Assembly: GCA_013791585.1 (NCBI GenBank) | Contig: VMTK01000018.1 | Location: forward strand, 7,316 to 71,315 | Direction: 5' to 3' | Length of the DNA stretch: 64,000 bases | DNA from: Candidatus Falkowbacteria bacterium | Lineage (GTDB): Bacteria > Patescibacteriota > Patescibacteriia > Patescibacteriales > VMTK01 | The notes under the pieces: model-generated | Seen by the model: only the letters and a program-made list of their open reading frames with translations | Databases searched by the model: none | Told to the model about the DNA's origin: nothing | Translations under genes and position numbers: made by a program | In this document: positions 6,523-24,803 of the stretch, piece by piece | Layout of the letters: each line of letters opens with the position of its first letter | Position numbering within the stretch: the stretch's first letter is position 1

Positions 6523-6541
6523 AGGGTTGATTTTTTTATTT

Positions 6542-7422: not shown

Positions 7423-7935
7423 TTATTTATTTGGATTCACGCTTCCCAATAAAACATAGTAAAAAATACGTTTAATTATTTCAAAAGTAATTAATATTAC
7501 AAATAGTCCTGTAAATAAGTATAAAAATGCAATTTCCAAATTACCAACTGATTTATAAAAAGAAATTAACTGATAATTTTTGGTTTTAGGGGCAATTTTT
7601 GATTCGAACATAAGTTGTGAAAATGATATTTTGCCATTGTTTATTATTGTTGGGTCATTAGGGTCGTAAGAACATAATAATTTGAATTTTTTATCGTTAG
7701 ATAATGATATATAACCGTTTGATCCAAGCAATATATTGTTTTCCTCTAAATTAAATTTTCTTTCATTATCACATAAAATATATGATTTATTATTGTCAAA
7801 AGTTTTTATAGGTACAAAGATAAAGTAAACGCCGAATAAAAATATAATTACCGCTGTTAAAAAACAAAAAATATAACAAATTTTTAATAGTCTATACCAC
7901 CATTTTTTATTAAGTGTTTTTATTGTTATTTCCAT
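7423..7935 (-). CDS. hypothetical membrane protein (2 TM)
   Basis: Long ORF with hydrophobic segments near both ends. Confidence 0.5.
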   Translation of the reverse strand: MEITIKTLNKKWWYRLLKICYIFCFLTAVIIFLFGVYFIFVPIKTFDNNKSYILCDNERKFNLEENNILLGSNGYISLSNDKKFKLLCSYDPNDPTIINNGKISFSQLMFESKIAPKTKNYQLISFYKSVGNLEIAFLYLFTGLFVILITFEIIKRIFYYVLLGSVNPNK

Positions 7936-7994
7936 ATGTTTGTGTTTAAAGATAAAAAATAATTTTATTAAATTCGCCTGAGATAGATTTAATT

Positions 7995-8402
7995 TTAAAA
8001 TTTTAATAATGATAATATAAAAAATAAAATATCAATAATAAAAATTATGTATAAAGTTTCTGGCCAGTGAGCGCTACTTTTAGGTTTTGGCGTATCAAAA
8101 TCTTGCCCAAGTTTTTTAATTTTCATTTCTTGCATTACATTAATAAGATAATACATATTTTCACGTGTTTGATCAATGTAAATAGCAAGGCTTACAAGCG
8201 TTATAAATAAAAAAATAGAAAGCGACATACCTGCTAAAATAGAATTTTGAATTATATTTGTTAGAGTAAAAATAAATCCAAAAATTGCCATAGAGATAGA
8301 ACTAACAATAGCAAGTATTTCAAATCTCAAAATCCCCATTTGTTTTAATTGATTATTGCAATCTAAAATAAGTTGGTATTTTATTTTATTTTCATCATTC
8401 AT
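7995..8402 (-). CDS. hypothetical membrane protein
   Basis: Long ORF with several hydrophobic segments. Confidence 0.5.
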   Translation of the reverse strand: MNDENKIKYQLILDCNNQLKQMGILRFEILAIVSSISMAIFGFIFTLTNIIQNSILAGMSLSIFLFITLVSLAIYIDQTRENMYYLINVMQEMKIKKLGQDFDTPKPKSSAHWPETLYIIFIIDILFFILSLLKF

Positions 8403-8481
8403 AAATTTTTTACCGACAGAATCCTCTACTGAGGAGGTATCTATTGTCTGTCGTCTGCTGTCTGTCGTCTGTCGTCTAAAA

Positions 8482-8943
8482 TTACTTCTCTCTCACCTTG
8501 ATAGAAATCTGTTTTGACACTTTGGCTTTTGGCAGGACAATGGTTAAGACTCCGTTTTCCAGCGACGCTTCTATCTCCTGGGCTTTTATTTCAACCGGCA
8601 GGATTATTGACCGCGAGAAGCTGCCCCAATAGCATTCCCGGTATAAATAATCGTCAGCGTCAATATTTTCCTGCGTTTCTCTCTTGCCTCTTATGGTGAG
8701 CATGTCGTTGTTGATGGAGATGTCAATGTCTTCCGGCTTGACTCCGGCAATGGTTGAGGTGACTATCAGCTTGTCGGGAGTTTGGTAGACATCAATAGAC
8801 AGCTGGCCTTCTTCGTAATCATTTTCAAGCCATTCCTCGCCGGCGTTGCTTTCCGCTGAATCATCAATTTCTTCATCATTGCCTCCGCGGCCTGATAATT
8901 TTTTGTCGGAAAATCCCGCTAATTTTTTAAAAAAGTTGCCCAT
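8482..8943 (-). CDS. Hsp20/alpha-crystallin small heat-shock protein
   Basis: SIDVYQTPDKLIVTSTIAGVKPEDIDISINNDMLTIRGKRE ... ASLENGVLTIVLPK. Confidence 0.9.
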   Translation of the reverse strand: MGNFFKKLAGFSDKKLSGRGGNDEEIDDSAESNAGEEWLENDYEEGQLSIDVYQTPDKLIVTSTIAGVKPEDIDISINNDMLTIRGKRETQENIDADDYLYRECYWGSFSRSIILPVEIKAQEIEASLENGVLTIVLPKAKVSKQISIKVREK

Positions 8944-9225: not shown

Positions 9226-11565
9226 ATGATAAAAGAGCAGAGTTTGCCAAATATAAACAATTTTGAAAAGCAGCCGGTGGAGGCTGAAGGGTTTGATATG
9301 GAAGAAAAGAATCGTGATTACGAATTACCGCTGGAAAAAGAAAAAGAAAGTTCAATGGAAATAATGAAGCAAATGGCAGAATATTACAATAAACTAAAGG
9401 AGCTAAAAGGCAAAAGCGGCACGGAAAAAATTAATAAAATAAAAAATTTTATTGGCGGCTCTAAAAATCAACAAGCAAAAATAAACCGTGTAAAAGCATT
9501 TTTGTCGCTTGAGCAAGATCCGGATATGGGAGATAGGATTATGCATTTAGGCGAGCGATTAAAAGAAAAACCAAAATTAGCGGATAAAGTATTTGCTGAA
9601 TACGCGGCAAATGTGGATAGCGCTGAAAAAAATGCCGATGAATTGGCGAAACTGTATAATGAAATATTTTTTGAAAAACAAATTGATCGTAATAAAGCTA
9701 AAATGGCTATGCTGAAAAATGCTGGAAATTTGTTGTATTGGGCGAATGAAGGATTATTCAGCTGTGAAGAGCAAGAAAAGGAAGATATGATTAATGATTT
9801 AATTTTACAGCTTAGGAGACAGGAAAAAGCGCAAAAAGCAATTTTAAATGATTTAAAAAGTTTGGCTGCAACATTAAACAAGAAGTATAAAGAGATTAAT
9901 GATTTATGGCGAAAAAAAGATTGGGATGAAGAGATAGAACTTCAAGCGCATTTTTTGGAGCAAGATGGATTTTCAAAAAAAGAGATTGAATCTCACATAG
10001 AGGCTATGGATGAACCTATAGAAAATTATATAGCTAGCATAGAAGAAAAAGATGAAATAGATAAACAAAAAAAATATGACAGTGAAAGAATTAAAAAAAT
10101 TATTAATAAATTAGAAAATTATTATAGAGAAAATTTATATCTTGATTCAATTTTAAAGTTAAGTGATTTTGCTAAAATTTGGCAAGTTGATGAAAGTCAA
10201 GCCAAAAAGATATTGGAAGATAAACGATTATATCAAGAAGAAAGATATAAGCCGTTTGTTGGCAAGTTTAAAATTTTATTAAAATTTCAACAAAGTTTTG
10301 AACAAAAGATAGATCAATTTATTTATGGTGATGGAATGCCGGAGTTGCCAGAAGGAGTAAAACAGGAAGCGGCTGATTTAATTTTTCAAAAATACCAGGA
10401 AATTATTGATCAAACTAAAATTACTAAGATTCAGCTTAAAGCTTTATTCAAAAATAAGAAAAAAGTTAGTGATGAGGAGATAGATCAAGCCACGGAAATT
10501 ATTATTAAAAAAGCTGACAACTTATTACATAATTTTGCACAGAGATTTAGCCAAGATGAAAAAATTGACGAGAAAGAAATAATAAATGAATTAGAAAACT
10601 ATAAAGCCAATTTAATCTTAACGGCCAGTGTTTGGAAAGCAGCTGATAAAGAAGGCATTAATTTTGAAGACTTGGAAGACGTTAGCTCTGAGCGGAAAAC
10701 AGCAGGTGAAATTACGGAGCATGGCAAGACCATGAAACTGGTTAATGAAATATACGATAGAGAAACAAGTAAAAAACAGCCTTTTATTCCCGGAGGCAAT
10801 ATAAGAAGCGCGATTTCACAATACGCGGCAGAAGCCAGTCCGGAGGAAAGGGAAAGAGCCGGCGAGATTTTAGAGATGATAAATATTTACAGCAAACAAT
10901 ACGCCCATAAACCGAAACTGCGGGAAAAATTAATACAAGGATTTATAGATAAATTAAATACGGCCGGAGACAAAACCGCGATTTATTCTTTTAAGAAAGG
11001 CGGCCATGTTTTAGCCTTTGACAGGTTTGACGATTTGGGAAAAGGCAAAAAATATTTTGGGTCATTCAACGTCCTGCCCGCGCTTACTGATTCGGCTATT
11101 GGCTCGGCTTTGTTGCGGGCAAGCTTGGACAAAGAAGCGGAGCAGTCAGCAGAAATAGAGGCGGACTGCGAGCCTGAAAAATTAATTAGCTCATATTATA
11201 TTGAAAAAGCCGGGTTTGTGGTAAAAAAAATAATCCCAGATTATGGAGACGCGGGGATTACAGCATTTAATATTTCCAGAAAAAAAGAAAACAGCAAGTA
11301 TTATTACAGGGATTACAAGGCGGAAGATTTAAAGAAAGAGCATGAAAATAATTTTTCTAACAATAAATTTAACAAAGACGATCAATATATAATATTAAAA
11401 TTTGAATCAAACGACGGCAAGCCGATAGAAAACGAACAGCAGATTAAAGAAATACTGGATCAAGCGGGCGATTTGATTAATAGCAATGGCTATGTGATGA
11501 CGAGATATATTTTCAGCAAAGACAGGCGGGCAGTTTACTGCGCGTTAGAAAGAGAAGGAAGCTGA
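9226..11565 (+). CDS. large hypothetical protein, coiled-coil N-terminal region, GNAT-like C-terminal region
   Basis: C-terminal SAIGSALLRASL and YYIEKAGFVV resemble GNAT motif A and the YEK.GF motif; rest unassigned. Confidence 0.55.
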   Translation: MIKEQSLPNINNFEKQPVEAEGFDMEEKNRDYELPLEKEKESSMEIMKQMAEYYNKLKELKGKSGTEKINKIKNFIGGSKNQQAKINRVKAFLSLEQDPDMGDRIMHLGERLKEKPKLADKVFAEYAANVDSAEKNADELAKLYNEIFFEKQIDRNKAKMAMLKNAGNLLYWANEGLFSCEEQEKEDMINDLILQLRRQEKAQKAILNDLKSLAATLNKKYKEINDLWRKKDWDEEIELQAHFLEQDGFSKKEIESHIEAMDEPIENYIASIEEKDEIDKQKKYDSERIKKIINKLENYYRENLYLDSILKLSDFAKIWQVDESQAKKILEDKRLYQEERYKPFVGKFKILLKFQQSFEQKIDQFIYGDGMPELPEGVKQEAADLIFQKYQEIIDQTKITKIQLKALFKNKKKVSDEEIDQATEIIIKKADNLLHNFAQRFSQDEKIDEKEIINELENYKANLILTASVWKAADKEGINFEDLEDVSSERKTAGEITEHGKTMKLVNEIYDRETSKKQPFIPGGNIRSAISQYAAEASPEERERAGEILEMINIYSKQYAHKPKLREKLIQGFIDKLNTAGDKTAIYSFKKGGHVLAFDRFDDLGKGKKYFGSFNVLPALTDSAIGSALLRASLDKEAEQSAEIEADCEPEKLISSYYIEKAGFVVKKIIPDYGDAGITAFNISRKKENSKYYYRDYKAEDLKKEHENNFSNNKFNKDDQYIILKFESNDGKPIENEQQIKEILDQAGDLINSNGYVMTRYIFSKDRRAVYCALEREGS

Positions 11566-12320
11566 TCGTATGCCTTTGAGCGATTCCATGTAAACTTAAA
11601 TAATGATTTATTGAATTGATAAATATTTTTATCATTTATAATCATTGATATAATGCCTTTCGTTGAAAGGGAAATATAGGCTACTTTTCCATCGTAAATT
11701 TCAACAATAGAGTTAAAAGGATATTTTAAATGGTCAATAAAACGAAACTCGCTAACTTTCGGGTGATAGTCTTTGAGATAATTTCTAGCGAACAACGTAT
11801 CAATTACTATAATTTTTTTCATAATATTCAGTTGCTCTCTTTTTTTCGCGTGTTCTCTGTTCAGCTTCTCCATATATTTAACAACCGCTTCAACATCCGC
11901 GAAAGTGCAAATTGTTTCTTTGGCGGTCAGCATATCGTCCAAAACTATTTTTAAGCCGTTTATTCCCTCAAAATACCTTACTCCCGGCTTGCCGGAAACC
12001 AGATTAAAATCCGAAACAATGCCAGATAGATTCGCTTCCAGGGTATTTTTCGCTTTTTTAAATTCGCTTTCTTTCTGCTCGGCAAAATCACGCAGTTTTT
12101 CAGGATGGTCCGGGCTGAAATAAGCGACTTTATCCTTGGTTTTCTGCGATGCCAGCCCCTTTTTAACTAATGCTGTTAAGGCATTATAAACAACTCCGCG
12201 CTTAAGCGGGGTTTTTTTAATGATTTTCCCGGCCGAAGATTCGCCGTTCTTTAATAGATATTCATAGACAACGGCTTCATTGGCCGACAGCCCTATTTGA
12301 GTAAAAATGTCTTTATACAT
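11535..12320 (-). CDS. TrmB-family winged-HTH regulator-like protein
   Basis: IGLSANEAVVYEYLLKNGESSAGKIIKKTPLKRGVVYNALTALVKKGL; 3' end overlaps the convergent 779-aa gene by 31 nt. Confidence 0.7.
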   Translation of the reverse strand: MYKDIFTQIGLSANEAVVYEYLLKNGESSAGKIIKKTPLKRGVVYNALTALVKKGLASQKTKDKVAYFSPDHPEKLRDFAEQKESEFKKAKNTLEANLSGIVSDFNLVSGKPGVRYFEGINGLKIVLDDMLTAKETICTFADVEAVVKYMEKLNREHAKKREQLNIMKKIIVIDTLFARNYLKDYHPKVSEFRFIDHLKYPFNSIVEIYDGKVAYISLSTKGIISMIINDKNIYQFNKSLFKFTWNRSKAYDQLPSLSNAQ

Positions 12321-12520
12321 GTTGTTTGCTTCGCAAAGCCCGGCTGCAAATCGGGCGCATGCGAATTAATGTTTTTTGCTTCGCAAAGCCCGGCTACGAA
12401 TCGGGCACATGCGAATTAATGTTTTTTGCTTCGCAAAGCCCGGCTACGAATCGGGCACATGCGAATTAATGTTTTTTGCTTCGCAAAGCCCGGCTACGAA
12501 TCGGGCACATGCGAATTAGC
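12321..12520. repeat. 4 x 50-nt head-to-tail tandem repeat, each unit a nested hairpin
   Basis: Units start at 12321, 12371, 12421, 12471. TTCGCA AA GCCCGG CTACGAA TCGGGC ACA TGCGAA; unit 1 has loop CTGCAAA. The array fills the whole intergenic gap, from the NTase stop codon to the TrmB-like start codon. Confidence 0.95.
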
Positions 12521-13130: not shown

Positions 13131-13708
13131 ATTTTAATTCTTTCTTTTAATTTTTTTAAAAATTCCTGCGCGCACCAGCTATCATCATTCCATAAGTCAA
13201 CGAAAATCTGCCCCAATGTTCCGCATTGGCCGTAATCCTTTAAATATTCATCCTGCTTTAAAACATAAAGATTTTCAGGGCCTTTTTTCGCTGGAAATCT
13301 TTTTTTGATTTCATCAATGTTGGAGCCGTAAATATAAACTTTGCCATAGTCAGACGGCGTTTCCTTGAATTTATATTTATAAGCGCTAAAACTCGCCCAG
13401 ATAATATCCGAGGGCATATTAGCTTCAATTTTTTCAATCGGCTCGCCAACAAAGGTTTTATAGATTATATCTTTACTAAGCTTCCTGTGCGTTCCCCATA
13501 AATAAAGCATTTTTTCAATATTTATCAGCTTAAAGCCGCTGCCGGATACTTGAATCGCTTTAATTTCACGGGGGATTTTTAAGGCGTTAAAGACAGTTGA
13601 TAAGGAAAAATTGAATTTTTTAGCCAGTTCCTGTTGTTGAAAGTTAAAATTGTTTTTTTCTATTGATTGGTAAAGCATTTCGCGCCAAATCACTTCTTTT
13701 TTGAACAT
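13127..13708 (-). CDS. HTH protein, AbiEi-like antitoxin candidate
   Basis: QQELAKKFNFSLSTVFNALK HTH; coupled to the NTase gene. Confidence 0.5.
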   Translation of the reverse strand: MFKKEVIWREMLYQSIEKNNFNFQQQELAKKFNFSLSTVFNALKIPREIKAIQVSGSGFKLINIEKMLYLWGTHRKLSKDIIYKTFVGEPIEKIEANMPSDIIWASFSAYKYKFKETPSDYGKVYIYGSNIDEIKKRFPAKKGPENLYVLKQDEYLKDYGQCGTLGQIFVDLWNDDSWCAQEFLKKLKERIKI

Positions 13709-13750
13709 ATAATTAAGTTGTTTCTAAAATTGATAATAAAATATAGCTTT

Positions 13751-13770
13751 ATTTCTATTATAGTAGAAAT
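13751..13770. promoter_or_regulatory. palindrome ATTTCTA-N6-TAGAAAT upstream of the HTH/NTase operon (possible operator)
   Basis: Read directly, about 45 nt upstream of the start at 13708. Confidence 0.3.
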
Positions 13771-14007
13771 AGAATAAATGTCAAGTTTATTTTAAAGTGT
13801 TCTATAAAAAATGTGAATCAAGGTATTGGCTGTGCAATTAATTATATCACATCTAAAATAATTGTCAAGAAAAAATGATAAATATAATTATTTGATTGTT
13901 TTATATTGTCATTGAAATATGATAAAAATAGCAAAAATATAAATAATCTATTTAAGCTAAAATTAGCTTAATATTATCGCATTTGACAGAAATAAAGTCA
14001 TATACTC

Positions 14008-14036
14008 TTGACAAGATATAAAGGGTATGCTATACT
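14008..14036 (+). promoter_or_regulatory. near-consensus sigma70 promoter TTGACA-17-TATACT
   Basis: Exact -35, 17-nt spacer, 5/6 -10; fires into the ORF-free region 14.04-15.26 kb. Confidence 0.55.
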
Positions 14037-14160
14037 GGTATATCAAGCTAAAAAGATAGCTTTGATAAAAACAGCACTTTAAATTAAAATAAAATACTTT
14101 TCAGTCTTCTGCTTAGCGGGTTAGAGTGGTAATAGCTATAAATAATTATGGCTTTATCCA

Positions 14161-14323
14161 TTAGACTTGCCGCGTAATTAGTTTCTACTGCAATTTCCAT
14201 ATTTTGGCCAAATTTCCCAAAAATTTTTTCAGCTTAGCTCAGGCTAAACCTCAAAAATTGTTTGAAAAATTTGACTCAAAATCTGAAAATTTCGTTACAA
14301 AACTAATTACGCGGCAAGTCTAA
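14161..14323. mobile_element. MITE-like 163-bp element with 24-bp perfect terminal inverted repeats
   Basis: TTAGACTTGCCGCGTAATTAGTTT (14161-14184) and its exact reverse complement (14300-14323); arms continue imperfectly; flanked by TCCA at 14157-14160 and 14324-14327. Confidence 0.45.
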
Positions 14324-14410
14324 TCCAAAAGGCATAAAATTGAAAAATGCTAGCGAGTGGCATTTCTTTCAAGCCAAATGCTTGTCGGCTTGAAAGAAGT
14401 CCAGTCTCTG

Positions 14411-14497
14411 GGATTTGAAACGCGGCGCTACAAATGCCGCCCATCCGAATAAACGGATTTGAAACGCGGCGCTACAAATGCCGCTCGTGCGAATAGA
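14411..14497 (+). repeat. two 44-nt-spaced units GGATTTGAAAC GCGGCG|CTACAAA|TGCCGC + (CCAT CCGAATA / TCGT GCGAATA)
   Basis: Hairpin-family copies 6 and 7 (stems 14422-14440 and 14466-14484). Confidence 0.85.
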
Positions 14498-14552
14498 ACA
14501 GGGATTAAATAGCACATTAAATTAAAATATTATTGTTCTTTATAAATAAAAC

Positions 14553-14727
14553 GCAATCAAGGAAACTAATGAAGAAGATTATTTATAACTATGATTTATG
14601 GCCAAGGCCTAAGTTAAGGTTATAAAGATCAATAAAATAAGTGCATAAAACAGCAAGGGATATCAAATAATAACTAAGCTCTTTAATAATTCATCTATTG
14701 CTCTTCTTCATCATTTTCTTTGATTGC
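14553..14727. repeat. 26-nt imperfect inverted repeats enclosing about 120 nt
   Basis: GCAATCAAGGAAACTAATGAAGAAGA vs TCTTCTTCATCATTTTCTTTGATTGC, 23/26 complementary. Confidence 0.7.
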
Positions 14728-15140
14728 AAAATCAGCTAAAAGCGATTGCTGTAAATTTTAGAATAAAAGCAGATTAAGCCATGCTTGTAATCTGCTTCCT
14801 AAGATATAATAGCCGCTTTAGTTCGTCCCGCTCCAATATAAATTTGGGCGGGAGATGGAATTAATTTTTGAATTATTATTTTAAATAATTATTCAAAAAA
14901 AGCGTAATCTAAATTGCACGAACCAATTTTGATAACGCGCCGCTTGAGTAAATTGTGATTCAGTTGTCTTTAAAAGATGATGAAATCCATTTTAAAGCGA
15001 TTCTGTCAACTGATGTGTTTGCCTCTCGAAAATCCCGAGGGAAGGACATTGGCTGGACGCAAAGTCTTGAACCCGCTTTGTGTCTAGAAATGTCTTAGCT
15101 AATAATTTAGAGCAATCCCGTTATTTATGACGGAGTAAGC

Positions 15141-15261
15141 GTTCTTTAAAACAAAATTTAAACTGAGGCAAAATGGAAATTAAATTTTTTAGTTTTTATT
15201 TTGTCTCAGTTTAGAGGCATAAACATTGAGCCCAGCCCGAGGGGAAATTCGGGCAAGGAGG
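15141..15261 (+). promoter_or_regulatory. 121-nt structured leader, copy 1 (ends in the SD AAGGAGG)
   Basis: 118/121 identical to 17024-17144; 15-bp stem 15160-15174/15198-15212; CCCGA..TCGGG hairpin 15236-15253 next to the SD. Confidence 0.8.
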
Positions 15262-15265
15262 AAAA

Positions 15266-16219
15266 ATGAATTTTTTTCAAATTGATCCGCGACCTGTCGG
15301 CCGTGGAGCGAATGAAAAGTTTTTTTCCGAGAACAGCAATGTCCTCGGAATTGAAGTAACTATTCCTGAGTGGGCATCTCGATGTTCATTTGGGAATATA
15401 GATCATCACGGCTCACAAGACACGGCGGAAACTCCGTCGGCTTGTGAACAAGCCATAAAGTATGGGACGCGATTTTTCGGTCGCCCCTGTTGCGGCGGTG
15501 GCTGGGATACTTATTCGTGTCCCAAATGTGACGGGGCTGATTGTCCTCCGGTTAAACCGGAGGCAATAGTCACTGTTCGCCCTGATGCGGATTCTGTGAC
15601 GGCAATGGCAGTTGTTTTTTCTTGCCTTTTAGGGGGTGGGCGAGAGATTGATCGCGACCTTGTAAAAATGGTCGGAACATTCGACCGACTTGGACATCAT
15701 GCCGAGCAACGCGATGACCGAGTTGTCGCCATTGCCCGAGTCTCCGCAGATTTCAAGCGTTCGCTCACAGAGCGAGTCGCTTGGGTGCAGGGATTGCTCG
15801 CTGGAAACAGTGAGCAGATGGCTGAGGTGGCTGAACTTGTTGCGGAACGCGATAAAGAATTTGCTGAGGCCAAAGTGGCGAGTGAGATTAATCTTGTCGC
15901 TAACGGTCGGATTGCTACGGTTGTTTCGTCGCATCGTTTTGCGACAAACTTGGGTTATGAGTATGCGACAGTTGTCGTAGCTCAAAACCCTGAAATGCCC
16001 GTGAATTTTCGTGACCCGTTCGCTGGTACATACAATAAATTTACGGTGTGTCGGTATAATTCGCACACACCGTGTAATTTACCGGCGGCACTTGCTGAGC
16101 TCCAAGTATTGGAGCCCGGCTGGGGCGGTCGAGGGGATATCTTCGGATCTCCTCAAGGAGTAAACTCTAAACTAACCCTCAACCAAGTGGTTGAGGTGGT
16201 TCAGAAACACCTCAAATAA
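15266..16219 (+). CDS. hypothetical protein with DHH/DHHA1-like motifs in non-canonical order and a Cys cluster
   Basis: GNIDHHG (aa 43-49), VRPDADS (aa 104-110), GWGGRGDIFGSPQG near the C-terminus; RPCCGGGWDTYSCPKCDGADC; strong SD; higher G+C than its surroundings. Confidence 0.7.
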   Translation: MNFFQIDPRPVGRGANEKFFSENSNVLGIEVTIPEWASRCSFGNIDHHGSQDTAETPSACEQAIKYGTRFFGRPCCGGGWDTYSCPKCDGADCPPVKPEAIVTVRPDADSVTAMAVVFSCLLGGGREIDRDLVKMVGTFDRLGHHAEQRDDRVVAIARVSADFKRSLTERVAWVQGLLAGNSEQMAEVAELVAERDKEFAEAKVASEINLVANGRIATVVSSHRFATNLGYEYATVVVAQNPEMPVNFRDPFAGTYNKFTVCRYNSHTPCNLPAALAELQVLEPGWGGRGDIFGSPQGVNSKLTLNQVVEVVQKHLK

Positions 16220-16286
16220 TATTCATCTCTCCCAAGTAAACGCGCGCTTGGGAGAGTAAAAAAATAGCGCTAAAAAAGGTTCACTT

Positions 16287-16325
16287 CGGGTAGGGATAAG
16301 TAGTTTTATTCCTACCCGCTTTTTC
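16287..16325 (+). terminator. rho-independent terminator
   Basis: CGGGTAGG..CCTACCCG followed by CTTTTT. Confidence 0.6.
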
Positions 16326-16494
16326 CAAGATTATCATTTTTATATTTAATAGTTAAATAATATTTTCATACTGCGGTTTTTGCCACAGGGTAATTTACTT
16401 AATTTAGCAAAAAATATAAATGGTGATTTTAGAGGAAGTAATTCTTTAGATTGTTCTTTATAATTAAATAATACATATTAAAAATTTTCATTGA

Positions 16495-16606
16495 TTTCTC
16501 CCTTTCTTTATAAATTCATTTACCTTTTAAGCTGATAAATATTTTTTAGCTTAAAAGGTAAATGAATAAAAATGCTACATTTTTGGCAAAAAAAGAAAGG
16601 GGGAAA
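16495..16606 (+). promoter_or_regulatory. SD-sequestering leader structure upstream of the 109-aa ORF
   Basis: 16495-16509 (TTTCTCCCTTTCTTT) pairs with 16592-16606 (AAAGAAAGGGGGAAA, includes the SD; one G-U); perfect 20-bp inner hairpin 16514-16533/16548-16567. Confidence 0.5.
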
Positions 16607-16608
16607 AA

Positions 16609-16938
16609 ATGAAAAAAGACAGAAAATTTGAAAGCCTCTTGCGTGAGATTCTTGGAGACCCAAATTTTTGGGTTCCTGGAGTTGGAAATGGAGGAATTGA
16701 GGGCGTCCTTGATGCCCTCAATTCTTTAAACGATGCGGAGATAATCCGCATCATTAGGGGAGGAGACAAAGCTAAATCCACCGCTTCGGTGGATTTTGAG
16801 AAAGAGCTCTCTTTAATAGAAGAGAGCATAAAGCGTCAGACAGCAGGAAGTGATCCTGCTTATGACACCCTCTATTACGCGTATGCCAACGCGTATGGAG
16901 AAGTTTGTGCCCTCATAGAAAACCTGCTAAGGGGTTAA
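16609..16938 (+). CDS. hypothetical protein (109 aa)
   Basis: ORF with a GGGGG SD and its own terminator; no recognisable motif. Confidence 0.6.
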   Translation: MKKDRKFESLLREILGDPNFWVPGVGNGGIEGVLDALNSLNDAEIIRIIRGGDKAKSTASVDFEKELSLIEESIKRQTAGSDPAYDTLYYAYANAYGEVCALIENLLRG

Positions 16939-16948
16939 TTGGTTTAAC

Positions 16949-16984
16949 GGGGAGTTTTTCTTGGTAAAAACTCCCCATCTTTCC
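16949..16984 (+). terminator. hairpin terminator GGGGAGTTTTT..AAAAACTCCCC
   Basis: 11-bp stem, 6-nt loop, T-rich tail. Confidence 0.5.
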
Positions 16985-17023
16985 AAATTCACCAATATGA
17001 TTGGCGGATTTAGAAAGGTGATT

Positions 17024-17144
17024 GTTCTTTAAAACAAAATTTAAACTGAGGCAAAACGGAAATTAAATTTTTTAGTTTTTATTTTGTCTCAATTTAGAGA
17101 CATAAACATTGAGCCCAGCCCGAGGGGAAATTCGGGCAAGGAGG
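17024..17144 (+). promoter_or_regulatory. 121-nt structured leader, copy 2
   Basis: 3 substitutions relative to 15141-15261; ends in AAGGAGG 6 nt before the ATG at 17151. Confidence 0.8.
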
Positions 17145-17150
17145 TGAAAA

Positions 17151-17510
17151 ATGAAGAAGAAGTATTTAGAAATTTTTTTTGATAAATGTACTTTTTCTGC
17201 AGAGGATATTGTTTCTTTAGCAGAAGAGGTAAGAAAGAATTTTACTGAGATAAGAATCGTCCCATCCTCAGTATATTCTTATCAAGGAGGAGAGCACGGT
17301 AGCAATCCTCCTAAAACTCGACCAGATGATTGGTCGGGAGTTATTCCTCGTATAAGTGACGGGGATACCCGTGACGGAGATTATCTTCTGTGCCTCGGCA
17401 CTGAGGATAGATACGGATATGTAGACGAGCGAGGGCTTGTCTACAAAAAGGCTTCCTCAATTGAGGAAGCAAAAAAATTTTTAAAGGGGGTGAATAATGC
17501 AAAAACATAA
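17151..17510 (+). CDS. hypothetical protein (119 aa)
   Basis: Strong SD; no recognisable motif; 14-nt overlap with the next ORF. Confidence 0.6.
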   Translation: MKKKYLEIFFDKCTFSAEDIVSLAEEVRKNFTEIRIVPSSVYSYQGGEHGSNPPKTRPDDWSGVIPRISDGDTRDGDYLLCLGTEDRYGYVDERGLVYKKASSIEEAKKFLKGVNNAKT

Positions 17511-18255
17511 AATTTACCCCTCAGGTCTAGAGCAGTATGAACATGCTCTAGGCCTGTACCAGCCTGTGTCGTATTGGCTGGCGCCAGAAGAGCAGACCTG
17601 CCGAGTGGTCTGCAATTTGCGAAGCCGGACTCATGAAGTATGGCTGAGTGAGCCGGCCTATAGGAGTCCGGAGCTTTTGCTCCCAGACATTGTCCATAAA
17701 CTTTGCCATTGCGCTCTGGCGGAACGAGTGGACACGGCTTTTTCCACGATTTGGTTCACTGAAAAATGGAATCAAATCAGCCGGAAAGAGCCGGGACGGT
17801 TCAGTCAGTCCGCCCGGATGCTCTACTTGGCATGGTGCCATGTGGACATTTGGGTCAATGATCTCCGGCACAAACATTGGCCGGAGTTAATCGCTCAGGA
17901 GCACTCCACCTTTGCTCAAGGAGTTGTTATTTTACTCCAAAGGCATGAGTGGGGCATGCTCTCCAGATCTGAGACGCTTCTCGGCTTGGCTCAGCACCAG
18001 GCCGAGCGGGAGCGGCACGGCCTATCTAAATCAGCTGACCTTTTTGCCGTTTTGTCAGCCCATGGCATAGAGGTTGAAAAAAAGATTAAAGGGCTGGCAG
18101 AATTTTTTAAATTTTTGCCGCGCTTGCGTTTTAAGCCGCGCAAGGATTTGAAAATTTTGGAAAGTTCAGTTGTAGAAGTTGCGCGCCGGCTGGAATTTCC
18201 AATTAGTCCCAAACTCGTGTTTAAAAACGGACTATGGGTTTGGGATTTGGGTTAA
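17497..18255 (+). CDS. hypothetical protein (252 aa) with an HExxH-like HKLCH motif
   Basis: IVHKLCHCALAE (Lys where a metalloprotease Glu would sit); SD AGGGGG upstream; translationally coupled. Confidence 0.6.
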   Translation: MQKHKIYPSGLEQYEHALGLYQPVSYWLAPEEQTCRVVCNLRSRTHEVWLSEPAYRSPELLLPDIVHKLCHCALAERVDTAFSTIWFTEKWNQISRKEPGRFSQSARMLYLAWCHVDIWVNDLRHKHWPELIAQEHSTFAQGVVILLQRHEWGMLSRSETLLGLAQHQAERERHGLSKSADLFAVLSAHGIEVEKKIKGLAEFFKFLPRLRFKPRKDLKILESSVVEVARRLEFPISPKLVFKNGLWVWDLG

Positions 18256-18328
18256 AGATTACTTCGTCCACCCGAGGTTTTGGGTTTAACAGCAAGCAAG
18301 GAGCGGATAAGCTTGCAAGGGTTTTAAA

Positions 18329-18358
18329 AAGGAGACATAATGGATTGTCTCCTTTTTT
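18329..18358 (+). terminator. rho-independent terminator AAGGAGACA..TGTCTCCTT + T-tract
   Basis: Read directly, after the last cassette gene. Confidence 0.7.
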
Positions 18359-18381
18359 ATGATTTTTAAGTTTATTTTTAT

Positions 18382-18415
18382 GAAAATTAAGCAAGGGATG
18401 GCGGTTAATAAAAAA
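18382..18415. repeat. 34-nt direct repeat, right copy
   Basis: GAAAATTAAGCAAGGGATGGCGGTTAATAAAAAA; 33/34 identical to 8994-9027. Confidence 0.8.
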
Positions 18416-18502
18416 GGGCTAAACCGCTCGCAGACGATTTAGCCCCTTTACCGTTTCAAATATCTGATCTGAAATCTGAAATCCGACATCAGAAATCCGA
18501 AA

Positions 18503-18613
18503 TGGTGGGCGACACAAGATTTGAACTTGCGACCTCCACGATGTCAACGTGGCGCTCTAATTTACTCCGGTACGCCCCGCTGGGCTACCGGAGCGAGCTG
18601 AGCTGCTTGTTGT
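18503..18613 (-). pseudogene. tRNA-Val(GAC)-like gene with a 37-nt hairpin inserted in the D-loop and no matching 5' acceptor strand
   Basis: 3' half is canonical (CCACG TTGACAT CGTGG AGGTC GCAAG TTCAAAT CTTGT GTCGCCC A CCA). D arm is GCTC AG[CTCGCTCCGGTAGCCCAGCGGGGCGTACCGGAGTAAA]TTA GAGC. The upstream 7 nt do not pair with GTCGCCC. Confidence 0.4.
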
Positions 18614-18618
18614 TTTTG

Positions 18619-18692
18619 TGGACGACACTGGACTCGAACCAGTGACCTCTTCGATGTCAACGAAGCGCTCTAACCAGCTGAGCTAGCCGTCC
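18619..18692 (-). tRNA. tRNA-Val (anticodon GAC)
   Basis: Hand-folded 74-nt cloverleaf: GGACGGC TA GCTC AGCTGGTTA GAGC G CTTCG TTGACAT CGAAG AGGTC ACTGG TTCGAGT CCAGT GTCGTCC A. Confidence 0.85.
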
Positions 18693-18774
18693 GTATCGGA
18701 TGTCAGATTTCGGATATCTGAAATCAGATTGTTAATTTATCCGAAATCCGAGATCTGAAATCCGATATCCGAAA

Positions 18775-18922
18775 TGGTGGGCATAGATGGATTTGAAGCT
18801 CCTCGGCGCTATCCTCGGTGCCGAAACTGGGAAACGGGGCGACATCCACGTTATAAGCGTGGCGCTCTAATTTACTCCGGTACGCCCCGCTGGGCTACCG
18901 GAGCGAGCTGAGCTAGCCGCCC
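18775..18922 (-). pseudogene. aberrant tRNA-like gene (UAU anticodon loop) with the same D-loop insertion, no foldable T arm, plus a stray tRNA 3' fragment
   Basis: GGGCGGC TA GCTC AG[37-nt insert]TTA GAGC G CCACG CTTATAA CGTGG AT GTCGCCC. GTCGCCC pairs with the 5' acceptor directly after the anticodon arm. The gene then ends ..TTCAAATCCATCTATGCCCACCA. Confidence 0.35.
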
Positions 18923-18939
18923 ATTTTTGAAATCTGAAA

Positions 18940-19015
18940 TGGTGCGCCCAGATGGACTTGAACCATCGACCCCCGGCTTATAAGGCCGGTGCTCTAACCA
19001 CTGAGCTATGGGCGC
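18940..19015 (-). tRNA. tRNA-Ile (anticodon UAU as encoded)
   Basis: Hand-folded 76-nt cloverleaf: GCGCCCA TA GCTC AGTGGTTA GAGC A CCGGC CTTATAA GCCGG GGGTC GATGG TTCAAGT CCATC TGGGCGC A CCA. Confidence 0.8.
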
Positions 19016-19188
19016 GGAAAATAAAAAAAGGATTTTTTATCCTTGTGCTATTTTAAATTTATCACTATATTTACTTTTTTTCAAGCCGTATAAAAATAAT
19101 AAAGTAATAAAATAACAAAATAAGATAATCAAGAGAGATGAAATTTTATTTTATTATTTTTTTTATTTCTATTATTTTGTTATTTTAA

Positions 19189-20397
19189 TTATATCGGCAG
19201 CTTGTTTAATTTTTCTTCTATGGAGCTGATGATTTGTTTTTCCGCTTCTTGAATCGGCGCGTCTAAGGAAGCGAATGCCAGATTTCTATCGCCTTGAGGG
19301 TTGTATTCTTTTATTATGTTTAATGAGTTTATATTTTTTATAGAATGGACTAGTACGTTGGTTTTAAGTTTTGGCGTTTCTCGGCCTTCTTGTTTTATTA
19401 TTTTTTCATAGATTATGATAATAATTTTCGCCTGCGGTATGTTAATAATCAGCTCGTCAATCACATCAGGCAGATCTTTTTCGCTGGAACATGTTTTTTT
19501 AAAATCCGCGGACGACAAAGCGGACCAGACCAATTTATTGTCCAAAGAGCTGGACAGCCGCGCCAAAACTCTGCCCCATAATTTCAGCACGCTTAACGGC
19601 CTGGAGCGGTAAAGATGATTAACGATTTCCTCGCGGCGCGCGCCCATGGAAATTAACTGCGAAGCGGCCAGCAAACAGGCAGGAGTTATATTTGAAGTTT
19701 TAAAGCTTTTGGTTTCGTAAATCATGCCGGCCAGCAGGCAGGTGGCGATATCCTCGTCCATTAAATCCCTGGAGCAGCTGTTGAAAAGAGAAAACAGGAT
19801 TTCTCCTGACGCGACCGCGGTAAGATCCGTATAATTGATTTGCCCGAAATCTTCATTGTTGGAATTGCGGTCAATATTAATGATAGGCATTTTGTAGAAA
19901 AATTCCGTGTCGTTGTCGTAGATTTTTCCCAGCGATTCCAGATCAGGCGAGCCGATAACAATAATCAAGTCATATTTAAATCCGCTTGAATGCGATGTTA
20001 TGTCTTCTTCGGTAAAAAATCCGTCCCGCGGAGAAACTATGAAATTCAGAGAATTCTCTTCCATTTTGTATTTTATCTGGCTTACTTTAGTGTCGGTTAT
20101 ATCCAGGGAAATAATGAATTTGCGCAGATTTTCCAAGGAATTTTTTATCTCGCCGAAGCCGGGAAGAAACGAGAATGTCCGTCCGTCATTGAATTTTTCA
20201 GCAACCAGGTCGGCATTTTTGCCCAGCTTTTTCAAAAAAAGATGCATAGCCAAAGCAGAAGCGACAGCATCGCCGTCCCATGTTTTCTTGAATGTTATTA
20301 AAATATTTTCAGCTTTTTTGATTTGTTCAAAAATCTGCTGTTCCTGGGTTAGCATAGAAAATAATGCGAATCTGCGAATTATATCCAAATACTCCAA
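19189..20397 (-). CDS. DHH/DHHA1-family phosphoesterase (NrnA-like) with a degenerate DHH motif
   Basis: KKTWDGDAVASALAM (motif I/II); IDRN in place of IDHH. The start may be the MLTQEQQ Met at 20355. Confidence 0.65.
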   Translation of the reverse strand: MEYLDIIRRFALFSMLTQEQQIFEQIKKAENILITFKKTWDGDAVASALAMHLFLKKLGKNADLVAEKFNDGRTFSFLPGFGEIKNSLENLRKFIISLDITDTKVSQIKYKMEENSLNFIVSPRDGFFTEEDITSHSSGFKYDLIIVIGSPDLESLGKIYDNDTEFFYKMPIINIDRNSNNEDFGQINYTDLTAVASGEILFSLFNSCSRDLMDEDIATCLLAGMIYETKSFKTSNITPACLLAASQLISMGARREEIVNHLYRSRPLSVLKLWGRVLARLSSSLDNKLVWSALSSADFKKTCSSEKDLPDVIDELIINIPQAKIIIIIYEKIIKQEGRETPKLKTNVLVHSIKNINSLNIIKEYNPQGDRNLAFASLDAPIQEAEKQIISSIEEKLNKLPI

Positions 20398-21926: not shown

Positions 21927-24803
21927 ATGATCAAAGAACTGCCAAAGGCGTATGAGCCGTCCAAATATGAAGACGGGATTTATAAAAAATGGGAAAAGTC
22001 CGGTTTTTTTAATCCTGATAATTTAGATTTGCCCAAAAACGCGCCAAGCTATACTATTATTTTGCCGCCGCCAAACATTACTGACAAACTGCATTTAGGG
22101 CATTCTTCCATGCTTGCCATAGAAGATTTGCTGATCCGCTATCATAGGATGAAAGGATTTAGAACACTTTGGCTGCCGGGCACGGATCACGCCGCAATTG
22201 CCACGCAGAATGTTGTTGAAAAAAAGCTATTAAAAGAAGAGGGGAAAACAAGGCAAGATTTGGGCAGGGAAAAATTCTTAGAAAAAGTCTTGGAATTCGT
22301 AAAAATTACCCAGTCTGTTATTTTGCGTCAAACCAGAAAAATGGGAGCTTCTCTGGATTGGTCGCGTGAAGCATTTACTTTGGATAAGCCCAGAGAAGAG
22401 GCAGTCAAGAAAATGTTTATTGATATGTATGAGGCAGGAGTGATTTACCGCGGAGAGAGGATTGTTAATTGGTGTCCGCGCTGCCATTCAACATTGGCTG
22501 ATGATGAAGTGGAATACAAAGACCAACAAGCGAAATTGTACACTTTTAAATATAGCAAGGACTTTCCTTTTACTATTGCCACAACTCGGCCGGAAACAAA
22601 GCTTGGCGATACGGCGGTTGCGGTGAATCCAAAAGACAAAAGGTACAAAAAATATATTGGCAAGGTTTATGAAGTGGATTTTGTCGGGATAAAATTAAAA
22701 CTGAAAATTATCGCTGATCGGCATGTTGAAATGGATTTTGGCACAGGCGCGCTGGGCGTGACGCCGGCGCATTCTATGGCTGATTGGCAGATGGCGGAAG
22801 CAAACGGTTTGGAAATTATAAAAGTAATCGGCGAGGACGGGAAAATTAATAATAACTTCAAAAAATATTCAGGCAAGACAGTTGAGGAAGCTCGGGAGAT
22901 GATTGTTAAAGAGTTAAGAAAAAATAATCTTTTGGAGAAAGAGGAAGAGATAGAAAATAATTTGTCTATTTGCTACAGGTGCAATACTCCCATAGAGCCG
23001 TTGCCGTCTAAGCAGTGGTTTGTAAGTGTTGATAAAAAATTAAAGCGGCTTGGAGGCGAAACACAAAAACACAAAAACACAAAAACACAAAAACACAAAT
23101 TAGATATTGAAGGCAAAACGCTTAAAGAAGCCGCCATAGAAGCTGTTAAATCCGGAAAGATTAAGTTTATTCCGGACAGGTTTGAAAAAAGATATATTGA
23201 TTGGATGGAAAATTTGCATGATTGGTGCATTTCAAGGCAGATTTGGTTTGGGCATAGGATTCCGGTATGGCATAGAACACGAAAACACGAAAACACGAAA
23301 ACACAAAAACACGAAAACACAAAAACACGAAAACACAAAAACACGAAAACACAAAAACACGAAATAGAGGAAATTTATGTCGGGATTGAACCGCCGAAAG
23401 GTGAAGGATGGGTTCAAGATCCGGATTCTTTAGATACTTGGTTTTCTTCTGGGATGTGGACTTTTTCTACATTGGGCTGGCCTGATAATTTTAAAAATGG
23501 GAAAAAGAAAGGGGATCTATCAAGGTTTCATCCTACTCAGGTTTTGGAAACCGGCTATGATATTCTTACGCTTTGGGTTTCTCGCATGATAATGATGTCT
23601 TTGTTCGCTTTGCGGGAAATACCTTTTGAAAATGTTTATCTGCACGGCATGGTTTTGGACGAGCATGGCAAGAAAATGAGCAAGTCAAAAGGCAATGGCA
23701 TTGATCCTGTTGATATGATTGATAAATTCGGCGCGGACGCGGCGCGCCTGTCTTTGCTTATAGGCAATACTCCGGGAAATGATTTGCGGTTAAGCGAAGA
23801 GAAAATCGCCGGGTTTAGGAATTTGGTTAATAAGATTTGGAATGTTTCGAGGTATGTAATTTCAGATTTCAGATTTCAGACCCCGCCCAGCTCCGCTGAC
23901 CGGGGCTGGGTTTCAGATTTCAGATTTAATCAAAAAAATTTAACAGTATCCGACAAATGGATTTTAGGCAAGATGGAAAATCTAATTAAGGAAACAGGCG
24001 ATGATCTGGATAATTACAGATTTTCGCAGGCAGGCGAAAGATTGCGGGAATTTACTTGGAATGATTTCGCGGATTGGTATTTGGAAGTCAGCAAGTTTGA
24101 AAAAAATAAAGAAAAAGGAAAAATACTATCGGTAATTTTAAATGATTTATTGAAATTATGGCATCCTTTTATTCCGTTTGTGACGGAAAAAATTTGGGAA
24201 GAGATGGGGAATGATAAATTTTTAATGATTGAAAAGTGGCCGGTAACCCCCCACCCCCAACCCCTCCCCCACTCCTGTTGTCGCGGGAGAGGGGAGATAG
24301 ATTTTGAATTGATAAAAGATGTTATCACAGCCATACGCAACGCGCGGGCGGAAAACAAGATTGAGCCGGCGCGGAAAATCAAGGCGGTAATTTACGGAGG
24401 CAAATCAGCGGATTTAATCAAGTCGCAGGAGTATTTGATTAAAAACATGCGGACAGGGATTAAAGAATTAGAAATTAAGGAAAAAGCAGATAAAATAAAG
24501 AATCGCCGCAGTCCTCTGCGAGAGGCTGCGGCGGGGCAGAGAATGTGGCATTGTCTTGTTCCTAAAGATGCCATTCATATTGCCGTTGCCGGCATTGAAA
24601 TTTATCTGATCGGCGCGGTTGATGAGGAAAAAGAAAAAATCAGAATTAAAAAAGAACGCGAGAATTTGGAAAAATTAATTATTATGGCAGAAAAAAAATT
24701 ATCCAATAAAGAGTTTGTGGAAAAAGCGCCGGAAAAAATCGTGAAACAGGAAAAAGAGAAATTGAAATTGCGAAAAGAGGAATTGAAAAAGCTAACCAAG
24801 TAA
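21927..24803 (+). CDS. valS: valyl-tRNA synthetase with multiple repeat-derived in-frame inserts
   Basis: PPPNITDKLHLGHS (HIGH), KMSKSKGN (KMSKS), C-terminal coiled coil; inserts at 23060-23099, 23277-23364, 23859-23928, 24245-24296, 24504-24533. Confidence 0.95.
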   Translation: MIKELPKAYEPSKYEDGIYKKWEKSGFFNPDNLDLPKNAPSYTIILPPPNITDKLHLGHSSMLAIEDLLIRYHRMKGFRTLWLPGTDHAAIATQNVVEKKLLKEEGKTRQDLGREKFLEKVLEFVKITQSVILRQTRKMGASLDWSREAFTLDKPREEAVKKMFIDMYEAGVIYRGERIVNWCPRCHSTLADDEVEYKDQQAKLYTFKYSKDFPFTIATTRPETKLGDTAVAVNPKDKRYKKYIGKVYEVDFVGIKLKLKIIADRHVEMDFGTGALGVTPAHSMADWQMAEANGLEIIKVIGEDGKINNNFKKYSGKTVEEAREMIVKELRKNNLLEKEEEIENNLSICYRCNTPIEPLPSKQWFVSVDKKLKRLGGETQKHKNTKTQKHKLDIEGKTLKEAAIEAVKSGKIKFIPDRFEKRYIDWMENLHDWCISRQIWFGHRIPVWHRTRKHENTKTQKHENTKTRKHKNTKTQKHEIEEIYVGIEPPKGEGWVQDPDSLDTWFSSGMWTFSTLGWPDNFKNGKKKGDLSRFHPTQVLETGYDILTLWVSRMIMMSLFALREIPFENVYLHGMVLDEHGKKMSKSKGNGIDPVDMIDKFGADAARLSLLIGNTPGNDLRLSEEKIAGFRNLVNKIWNVSRYVISDFRFQTPPSSADRGWVSDFRFNQKNLTVSDKWILGKMENLIKETGDDLDNYRFSQAGERLREFTWNDFADWYLEVSKFEKNKEKGKILSVILNDLLKLWHPFIPFVTEKIWEEMGNDKFLMIEKWPVTPHPQPLPHSCCRGRGEIDFELIKDVITAIRNARAENKIEPARKIKAVIYGGKSADLIKSQEYLIKNMRTGIKELEIKEKADKIKNRRSPLREAAAGQRMWHCLVPKDAIHIAVAGIEIYLIGAVDEEKEKIRIKKERENLEKLIIMAEKKLSNKEFVEKAPEKIVKQEKEKLKLRKEELKKLTK

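Follow-up and report, generated by a model that had tools for sequence, protein, structure and literature searches.

A nearly identical 121-nt leader in front of two unrelated cassette units of a Candidatus Falkowbacteria island, a probable duplicated expression module

In a 64,000-nucleotide (nt) stretch of a Candidatus Falkowbacteria contig (VMTK01000018.1, positions 7,316 to 71,315, assembly GCA_013791585.1; the whole stretch is called the window here), two cassette transcription units that encode unrelated proteins are preceded by almost the same 121 nt. Why should these units share a leader? The initial annotation had reported 118 identical positions out of 121 in front of unrelated coding sequences, and had taken the repeat for a shared cis-regulatory RNA or promoter-operator that co-controls a gene for a 317-amino-acid (aa) protein and a 119-aa/252-aa pair. 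Both the identity and the lack of relationship downstream (317-aa against 252-aa protein, BLASTP E=0.42) are borne out. The two copies are:

15141-15261, plus strand: leader copy A, 5' of the 317-aa gene, 118/121 identity to copy B
17024-17144, plus strand: leader copy B, 5' of the overlapping 119-aa/252-aa gene pair, 118/121 identity to copy A

With moderate confidence, the repeat can be read as a duplicated expression module that would form the 5' untranslated region (UTR) of both units, in which a short box marks the start of the cassette, a long helix acts on the mRNA, and a second hairpin together with a Shine-Dalgarno sequence (SD) sets initiation; co-expression of the two units would follow from this arrangement.

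The two copies are 97.5% identical and differ at 15174 (T in A, C in B), 15209 (G in A, A in B) and 15217 (G in A, A in B); past a 2-nt indel the similarity extends via ATGAA up to 15270/17155. Folded as RNA, the whole leader of copy A reaches -48 kcal/mol (z = -6.4). No third copy was found in the 64-kb window with blastn at a word size of 7. The repeat is present in six contigs from the same population (three NCBI metagenome-assembled genomes (MAGs), two ENA assemblies and one from JGI), five of which span both copies and carry the identical three differences, while the sixth (L006) stops before copy B; L-numbers denote contigs or loci fetched for comparison, which were chosen as the contigs of the closest and several more distant members of the cassette-protein families. 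An assembly artefact can be rejected because the repeat recurs in independent assemblies of the population and those spanning both copies agree on the three differences. The repeat is fixed in all spanning assemblies and is therefore older than the sampled population diversity. The most similar proteins of other species are 77-83% identical, and the repeat is much younger than the divergence from the closest of these species. The contig JAHIIL010000034 (GCA_018899175.1, a MAG named 'Patescibacteria group bacterium') is identical to the window.

From its 5' end, the leader is made up of the box (leader positions 1-11), a long hairpin (hairpin 1, positions 17-75), a second hairpin (hairpin 2) and the SD AAGGAGG, placed as follows:

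15141-15151, plus strand: box GTTCTTTAAAA of copy A, the 5' boundary of the repeat
17024-17034, plus strand: box GTTCTTTAAAA of copy B
15157-15215, plus strand: hairpin 1 of copy A, 28 base pairs (bp) with a 3-nt loop, a 59-nt palindrome
17040-17098, plus strand: hairpin 1 of copy B, with two C-A mismatches, -18.9 kcal/mol
15235-15254, plus strand: hairpin 2 of copy A (GCCCGAGGGGAAATTCGGGC), directly 5' of the SD, which lies outside the hairpin
17118-17137, plus strand: hairpin 2 of copy B, same sequence as in copy A
15255-15261, plus strand: SD AAGGAGG of copy A, 4 nt from the ATG at 15266
17138-17144, plus strand: SD AAGGAGG of copy B, 6 nt from the ATG at 17151

The 15-bp stem with a single G-U pair that had been described earlier is real as the core of hairpin 1, but the full helix is 28 bp long and holds five G-U pairs in copy A. 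Its pairing there consists of 23 Watson-Crick and 5 G-U pairs, without a mismatch or an unpaired base in the helix, and the plus-strand RNA folds at -29.1 kcal/mol (z = -9.8) against -14.7 kcal/mol for the minus strand. The hairpin is AT-rich and forms a perfect 28-bp helix in the plus-strand RNA only; the minus strand folds about half as well because all five non-Watson-Crick pairs are G-U in the plus strand (5/5). By our own estimate the chance of this is about 1e-4, as 2 of the 12 possible non-Watson-Crick combinations are G-U or U-G. That every such pair is G-U argues for selection on the plus-strand RNA and not on a DNA palindrome, and so points to hairpin 1 having been selected as an RNA structure.

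What might such a helix do? Neither hairpin was called by a terminator scan and no U tract follows either of them (hairpin 1 is followed by GAGGCAUAAAC), so that an intrinsic terminator or attenuator is rejected. RNase III acts on continuous double-stranded RNA helices of about 20 bp or more, and the mismatch-free 28-bp helix of copy A exceeds this length. Hairpins cut by RNase III process the early transcripts of phage T7, and the ribosome-binding site of E. coli adhE is unmasked in an RNase III-dependent manner; the leader resembles these sites in having a long, near-perfect double-stranded helix just upstream of the ribosome-binding site, and differs from the T7 sites, which have internal loops, in that the copy A helix has none. 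Hairpins that stabilise the 5' end are known from the ompA leader and the Bacillus aprE and ermC leaders, with which the 121-nt leader shares a stable hairpin near the presumed 5' end and a strong SD. As for hairpin 2, the earlier description of a CCCGA..TCGGG hairpin abutting the SD AAGGAGG is accurate (15235-15254 next to 15255-15261 in copy A).

The box recurs beyond the two leaders. A related box had been reported to start both copies and to recur at 14532 and 16449; the recurrence stands, at 14535 and 16453, but the repeat starts at GTTC and not at GATT, because the two bases before GTTC are GC instead of TT in copy A. The two further boxes are:

14535-14545, plus strand: box GTTCTTTATAA, heading a non-coding stretch of about 600 nt, with a homologous box at position 377 of L063
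16453-16463, plus strand: box GTTCTTTATAA, heading the leader of the 109-aa gene, inside a promoter-like spacer

These four (14535, 15141, 16453, 17024) are the only exact matches to the 11-nt box GTTCWTTAWAA in the window; all are on the plus strand within 2.5 kb, against 0.80 expected, and none of 100 shuffles reached four. Across 143.7 kb of non-redundant Patescibacteria loci there are 11 exact matches against 0.87 expected, 10 of which are intergenic and in the same orientation as the next gene, and the box stands at the head of cassette leaders in five further contigs. All shared leader segments are bounded by it on their 5' side, and the identity between copies A and B begins there. The promoter-like TTTAGA-16-AATAAT at 16445-16472 has the box at 16453 within its spacer, as does a promoter-like -35/-10 pair around the box at L063 377; the promoter scan gave no site at 15141 or 17024. 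The box as a -35 element is rejected, the hexamer 17 nt downstream being mostly not -10-like; as a -10 element, it has no conserved T at its final position and a common -35 is absent. The box may act as a promoter, an operator or an RNA boundary signal.

The leader as a whole was found only in its source population, and this bears directly on the proposal of a regulatory RNA. A scan of the whole window at the Rfam gathering thresholds returned two tRNAs only, and over the element an Rfam scan of 13600-19200 at E up to 5 gave only generic hairpin matches (microRNA and small nucleolar RNA models); a known RNA family (Rfam riboswitch, leader or small RNA) is therefore rejected. In 23 related loci, searched with nhmmer and permissive blastn, the whole 121-mer had no match outside the source population. 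A search for the pattern of the hairpin arms in one genome per GTDB species gave two chance matches (a Clostridia MAG and Enterococcus) in a collection that evidently lacks the source population. The pattern of hairpin 2 plus SD matched 47 times in JGI metagenome contigs, nearly always in high-GC DNA without the box, and both the source population and L014 are missing from that collection; pattern scans of IMG/VR found nothing. The proposal thus survives in part: there is a shared plus-strand cis leader with an RNA-specific hairpin and a recurring box, but a conserved regulatory RNA family is not supported, since Rfam matched no family, the 121-mer is absent from the homologous cassettes and the differences between the copies are uncompensated. 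Co-control of both units is therefore best regarded as a plausible consequence of recent duplication and not as evidence of a dedicated sensor RNA.

Parts of the leader do occur elsewhere. Over the first 17 nt (GTTCTTTAAAACAAAAT) it agrees at 16/17 positions with the L072 leader of a 119-like gene, and this similarity ends exactly at the left edge of the palindrome. The 252-like genes of L014, L065 and L063 share with the 121-mer a CCGAGGG..TCGG hairpin plus SD in their leaders; the box, which reads UUCAUU in L014 and L065, lies 10-19 nt 5' of this hairpin in those two, and the SD follows. The long palindrome is absent from these three 252-like gene leaders and from the L072 leader. The two outer stem pairs of hairpin 2 are G-C/C-G in the window and A-T/T-A in L014, which gives weak support to its structure, because L014 can fold otherwise too. 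From these comparisons the leader appears to be a mosaic of reusable parts.

In L007 no separate leader precedes the 317-like gene (83% identical), which overlaps the stop codon of a 124-aa gene upstream. The 124-aa protein is the orthologue of the 109-aa protein of the window (75% identical) and its gene is the first in the operon; the possibility that it is a homologue of the 119-aa protein is rejected, as no similarity was found. In an alignment with L063, an apparent decayed box and leader start are seen at about 15095, 5' of leader A. It is because of the leader matches in L072 and the 252-like genes, the leaderless 317-like gene of L007 and this decayed box that copy B is suggested to be nearer the ancestral context, copy A having been placed before the 317-aa gene by recombination. 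L007 has another leader type, present twice (98 and 1839), made up of the box, TTGAATAATACAGATTAAAA and 9-nt tandem repeats; both copies start at the box and bracket the 124-aa + 314-aa cassette. The AAAGTCCGT array of this leader (118-232, 1868-2081) has expanded between the two copies, from about 5 units to about 17.

A common plan of box, long AT-rich hairpin and SD is found in the leaders of the 109-aa gene, the L007 cassette, two L063 genes and the 119-like gene of L067; the hairpin sequences differ among these sister leaders and the L067 box is degenerate. The example in the window is:

16453-16608, plus strand: leader of the 109-aa gene, with box, long hairpin (16514-16567) and SD, its sequence differing from that of the 121-mer

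This leader folds at -50.8 kcal/mol (z = -11.4), and its SD is predicted to be sequestered by a pyrimidine tract at 16495-16509 (P(SD paired) = 1.00). Throughout the sister leaders (109-aa gene, L007, L063, L067) folding pairs the SD with a pyrimidine tract further 5' (P = 0.76-1.0) in a predicted helix that would enclose the long hairpin; the SD would thus lie inside a helix, an arrangement comparable to adhE-type unmasking. Where the homologous hairpins of L007 and L063 differ, 8/8 differing pairs stay paired, with 2 compensatory changes, 4 one-sided and 0 broken, and this comparison of sequences supports an RNA structure in the leader family.

In two of these loci the leader is also preceded by a hammerhead-like sequence of type III (L007 29-96, 37.7 bits, E = 6e-6; L063 1556-1608, 33.6 bits, E = 1.4e-4). 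Both scores lie below the Rfam gathering score for RF00008 of 48.5 bits; the CUGAUGA and GAAA cores are intact in both. If these putative ribozymes are active, the box lies inside the RNA of those cassettes. The synthetic insulator RiboJ consists of a hammerhead-type ribozyme and a hairpin followed by the ribosome-binding site, and gives the mRNA a defined 5' end. The order in L007 and L063, predicted hammerhead-like ribozyme, box, long hairpin and SD, resembles it, whereas the leaders of the window lack a hammerhead (none in 13600-19200 in the Rfam scan) and the L007 and L063 matches stay below the gathering threshold. A full-text search of the literature gave no discussion of hammerheads in the genomes of Patescibacteria (the candidate phyla radiation, CPR), only incidental co-mentions.

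Put together, the explanation preferred here is that the repeat is a recently duplicated or recombined modular leader which heads accessory-gene cassettes of a variable island and would be transcribed with the downstream genes as their 5' UTR. The box would mark the start of the cassette, as a promoter/operator element or as an RNA boundary; the 28-bp helix would work at the mRNA level, either stabilising the 5' end or serving as an RNase III site; and hairpin 2, which may have been inherited from the leaders of the 252-aa family, would set translation initiation together with the strong SD. Both units (317-aa; 119/252-aa) would then have their start signals and 5' RNA structure in common. The most likely origin of the duplication is recombination between the box and the SD/ATG, the short conserved sequences at either end; such an event would have detached the 317-aa gene from its usual upstream partner of the 109-aa family and supplied it with a leader of its own. 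It counts in favour of this explanation that all three units, at the ends of the 317-, 109- and 252-aa genes, close with a hairpin:

16287-16318, plus strand: terminator-like hairpin 3' of the 317-aa gene, from the terminator scan
16949-16976, plus strand: hairpin GGGGAGTTTTT..AAAAACTCCCC 3' of the 109-aa gene, read by eye, with a weak T tail and unflagged by the terminator scan
18326-18357, plus strand: terminator-like hairpin 3' of the 252-aa gene, closing the cassette block, from the terminator scan

Several points weigh against this explanation. Of the three differences between copies A and B, the two that fall in hairpin 1 both break pairs, and none is compensatory. The box is predicted to pair with the SD at P = 0.80 in copy A and at P = 0.00 in copy B; by these folding models masking of the SD in the 121-nt leader is not robust, and the box as a general anti-SD is rejected because the pairing holds for copy A only. 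No consistent sigma-70 -35/-10 pair could be placed across the 11 boxes, by promoter scan or by manual inspection. In L007 and L063 the hammerhead-like sequence ends 3-4 nt before the box GTTCTTTAAAA, which fits a box within the transcript better than a promoter. Finally, the direction of the duplication, from B to A, is drawn from the relatives only.

Alternatively, the 59-nt palindrome could be a mobile element, resembling a miniature inverted-repeat transposable element (MITE) or a repetitive extragenic palindrome (REP), that entered an older, shorter leader (box, hairpin 2, SD) and was later duplicated together with it; the close identity of the copies would then come from the element and not from regulation. 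The leaders in L014, L065, L063 and L072 that lack the palindrome would fit such an insertion, as would the L072 identity that halts exactly at its left edge. However, the palindrome occurs only twice in 64 kb, both times in the same wider 121-nt context; none was found in the 23 related loci, in the GTDB species representatives (evidently without the source population) or in IMG/VR; no target-site duplication is visible; and the non-Watson-Crick pairs, all of them G-U, point to selection on plus-strand RNA. A mobile palindrome is accordingly held to be unlikely.

It is also improbable that the leader is a sensor, whether a riboswitch, an RNA thermometer or a protein-titrated switch, which gates both ribosome-binding sites by one signal. 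Hairpin 2 abuts the SD, pairing between UUCUUU of the box and the SD is possible in copy A (P = 0.80), and the sister leaders are predicted to sequester their SDs (P = 0.76-1.0), all of which would suit a switch. Yet the SD lies outside hairpin 2, pairing of box and SD is not predicted for copy B and is weak with the UUCAUU box of L014 and L065, and the leader consists of two plain hairpins with no conserved junction or pocket; there is no Rfam match at E up to 5 and the element is not conserved in the orthologous cassettes. A dedicated ligand sensor in particular is unlikely.

A regulator on the left flank of the cassettes offers another possibility, namely that the box is its operator and that the duplication placed two units under one repressor:

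11535-12320, minus strand: TrmB-type helix-turn-helix (HTH) gene for a 261-aa protein, Pfam TrmB E = 6e-12

The window, L063 and L073 each have a gene of the TrmB family at the same place on the left border, on the strand opposite to the cassettes (window and L073 proteins 40% identical), and at 16453 and L063 377 the box lies within promoter-like spacers. In L063 and L073 this gene adjoins the non-coding region directly, while in the window two toxin-antitoxin (TA) genes and non-coding DNA keep it apart from the cassette block. Against an operator, the box lacks palindromic symmetry, L073 contains no exact match to it, and L007 and L065 have boxes with no TrmB gene in the part of the contig examined. 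This idea is compatible with a duplicated expression module and does not exclude it; on its own it is given little probability, and to name the TrmB-type protein as a candidate box-binding regulator is speculation. At the start codon of this gene begins a 50-nt tandem repeat (12319-12518), with 4 copies here and 2 in the strain contig L002; a related 44-nt repeat is present in 2 copies at 14411-14498, and in both repeats the hairpin loop GCTACRAAT is conserved while the stems differ (GCCCG/CGGGC against GCGGC/GCCGC).

Least probable is a site-specific recombination site at the box or at box plus hairpin, comparable to integron attC/attI, with the repeat as the scar of a recombinase and not a regulator: the box bounds every shared segment at its 5' side, direct repeats beginning at the box flank the L007 cassette on both sides, and gene order varies among the islands of the window, L007, L063 and L073, but within about 10 kb to the left and right there is no domain of an integrase, transposase or recombinase, the element stands 5' of genes, with an SD, on the coding strand, and an attC is rejected because the arms TTTAAAC / GTTTAGA miss the GTTRRRY / RYYYAAC cores, copy A has no extrahelical base and there is no integrase among the neighbouring genes.

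For a duplicated expression module, the closest analogue appears to be the promoter(early)-stem-loop (PeSL) cassettes of T4-type phages, in which promoter and stem-loop modules stand before orphan genes (Arbiol et al. 2010, PMC2839356; Comeau et al. 2014, PMC4122927). Each PeSL has an early promoter of sigma-70 consensus (-35, -10 and an AT-rich upstream region), with a G/C-rich terminator stem-loop upstream of the promoter (PMC2839356). In both systems a short composite start signal with a stem-loop recurs in hypervariable regions before orphan genes that are unrelated, copy ends match rearrangement breakpoints, and genes are shuffled as cassettes of module plus open reading frame (ORF); the cassette genes of the window belong to no Pfam family, their island is bounded by TA modules and tRNAs, and gene order differs between islands. 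The two differ in that no sigma-70 consensus can be placed in the 121-nt leader, in that its hairpin is AT-rich, 28 bp long and downstream of the box in the presumed 5' UTR, in that it is found in an island of a bacterial chromosome and not in a phage, and in that there is no sequence similarity between them.

The housekeeping genes of the window are bacterial (topoisomerase I, Der, RelA/SpoT, ValRS, PheT, LytR). To the left of the cassettes, on the minus strand, the TrmB-type gene is followed by a DUF6036/AbiEii-like nucleotidyltransferase gene with a 193-aa partner; to the right lie tRNA-Val, tRNA-Ile, a DHH-domain gene and an AbiEi/AbiEii pair. The variable island thus bounded by TA modules and tRNAs has syntenic counterparts in L007, L063 and L073, among which and the window the gene order varies. 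Its middle carries, on the plus strand only, about 1.5 kb of ORF-free DNA and then the four cassette genes:

15266-16219, plus strand: 317-aa gene, predicted DHH/DHHA1 phosphoesterase-like fold
16609-16938, plus strand: 109-aa gene, with an L007 orthologue 75% identical
17151-17510, plus strand: 119-aa gene, with two other homologue clusters only
17497-18255, plus strand: 252-aa gene, from a family of 16, with a zincin-like motif

Their G+C contents are 0.50 (317-aa), 0.45 (109-aa), 0.39 (119-aa) and 0.50 (252-aa), against 0.38 for the window and 0.36 for the leader. None of the four proteins had a match in Pfam, PADLOC, PHROGs, NCBIfam or PDB sequence searches, and structure prediction gave a lead for the 317-aa protein only. 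At least 129 proteins belong to the 317-aa family, all of them apparently from Patescibacteria-type sources, and the residues D46 H47 H48 D107 D109 D140 (DHH, DxD, D) are invariant. An AlphaFold2 model with a predicted local distance difference test score (pLDDT) of 88.6 matched Rv2837c, GdpP, RecJ2 and NrN in a Foldseek search of the PDB (E 1e-5 to 1e-3), and the model suggests a DHH-phosphoesterase-like fold. In L008, a high-GC relative, an ART-PolyVal (ADP-ribosyltransferase-like) gene and a gene for a Cys-rich 240-aa protein precede a 317-like gene (6422-8612); the product called there, of 203 aa, looks 5'-truncated, and the frame with the conserved N-terminus begins near 7670.

The motif H-x-x-x-H..E is invariant in the 252-aa family and reads HExxH in nearly all members; the window protein has HKLCH, in which Lys replaces the nearly invariant Glu. 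With this change, the copy of the putative zincin-like protein in the window may be catalytically inactive. Its model (pLDDT 95.5) had no significant PDB neighbour in a structure search.

Between the first box and leader A, part of the ORF-free DNA is conserved:

14735-15100, plus strand: conserved non-coding stretch between the first box and leader A, nhmmer against L063 (432-778) E = 1e-24

For this stretch of about 370 nt, RNAalifold gave 86 pairs with 17 compensatory changes, from two sequences only; 4 double changes fall in a 12-bp terminal hairpin of this predicted structure. Rfam has no match for the stretch, its longest ORF does not exceed 47 aa, and it is a candidate for a new structured RNA.

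Some further features of the window were observed beside this locus. Next to the canonical tRNA-Val(GAC) and tRNA-Ile(UAU), two extra tRNA-like genes lie on the minus strand at 18506-18610 and 18785-18930, with matching anticodon loops (TTGACAT, CTTATAA) and an encoded CCA. Both have the same hairpin-forming D-loop insertion of about 36 nt, TCGCTCCGGTAGCCCAGCGGGGCGTACCGGAGTAAA, and the Ile-like copy has another near the T arm; within the two genes a 76-nt repeat (18529-18604 / 18839-18914) is 93% identical. They were missed by ARAGORN, and the Rfam tRNA model gave 28.5 bits for one of them. The UAU anticodon of tRNA-Ile (18940-19015) is genomically encoded, which is unusual for bacteria.

Arrays of the 8-nt units AAACACGA/AAACACAA are found at 2128-2170, 23059-23100, 23275-23364, 33113-33154, 33629-33770, 34875-34996 and 35594-35672. 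Most of them lie inside long ORFs, for ValRS (21927-24803) and a UvrD/PD-(D/E)XK helicase-nuclease (32550-36050), and would yield repetitive peptide inserts in housekeeping proteins. Tandem repeats of 7-9 nt, with units such as CGCATAA, GGGTTAACGA-like, CTCATAA and TTTCGGAT, stand just upstream of many genes (37984-38044, 61318-61378, 46226-46277, 49571-49622, 51097-51125, 51565-51593) and around the tRNAs (18460-18530, 18700-18780); short upstream tandem repeats look like a lineage-wide leader feature. A 54-nt motif with TTGAAAAATTTTAGGGGAAATGGTAGAGT (TTGAAA-17-TAGAGT) occurs in three copies upstream of plus-strand genes (26141-26194, 31230-31283, 57999-58052) and is probably a conserved sigma-70-type promoter with a fixed spacer.

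A wider reading can be offered only tentatively, and is rather doubtful as it stands: accessory islands in one group of Patescibacteria may follow an undescribed cassette grammar of a box and then an interchangeable structured RNA leader (a long plus-strand-only helix that often encloses or precedes a masked SD), in some cassettes with a self-cleaving hammerhead immediately before the box, which would be nature's equivalent of the engineered ribozyme insulators; a conserved TrmB-type regulator and the structured RNA of about 370 nt would lie at the left border, the 121-nt duplication being one shuffling event. To our knowledge, the uncultured Patescibacteria have almost unstudied transcript starts, insulation and processing, and unmapped promoters and leaders. 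The duplication is in itself ordinary, and its value is as a pointer to a modular leader system, in which a recurring, sequence-defined box and interchangeable RNA leaders would provide testable handles on gene expression and gene shuffling in the CPR.

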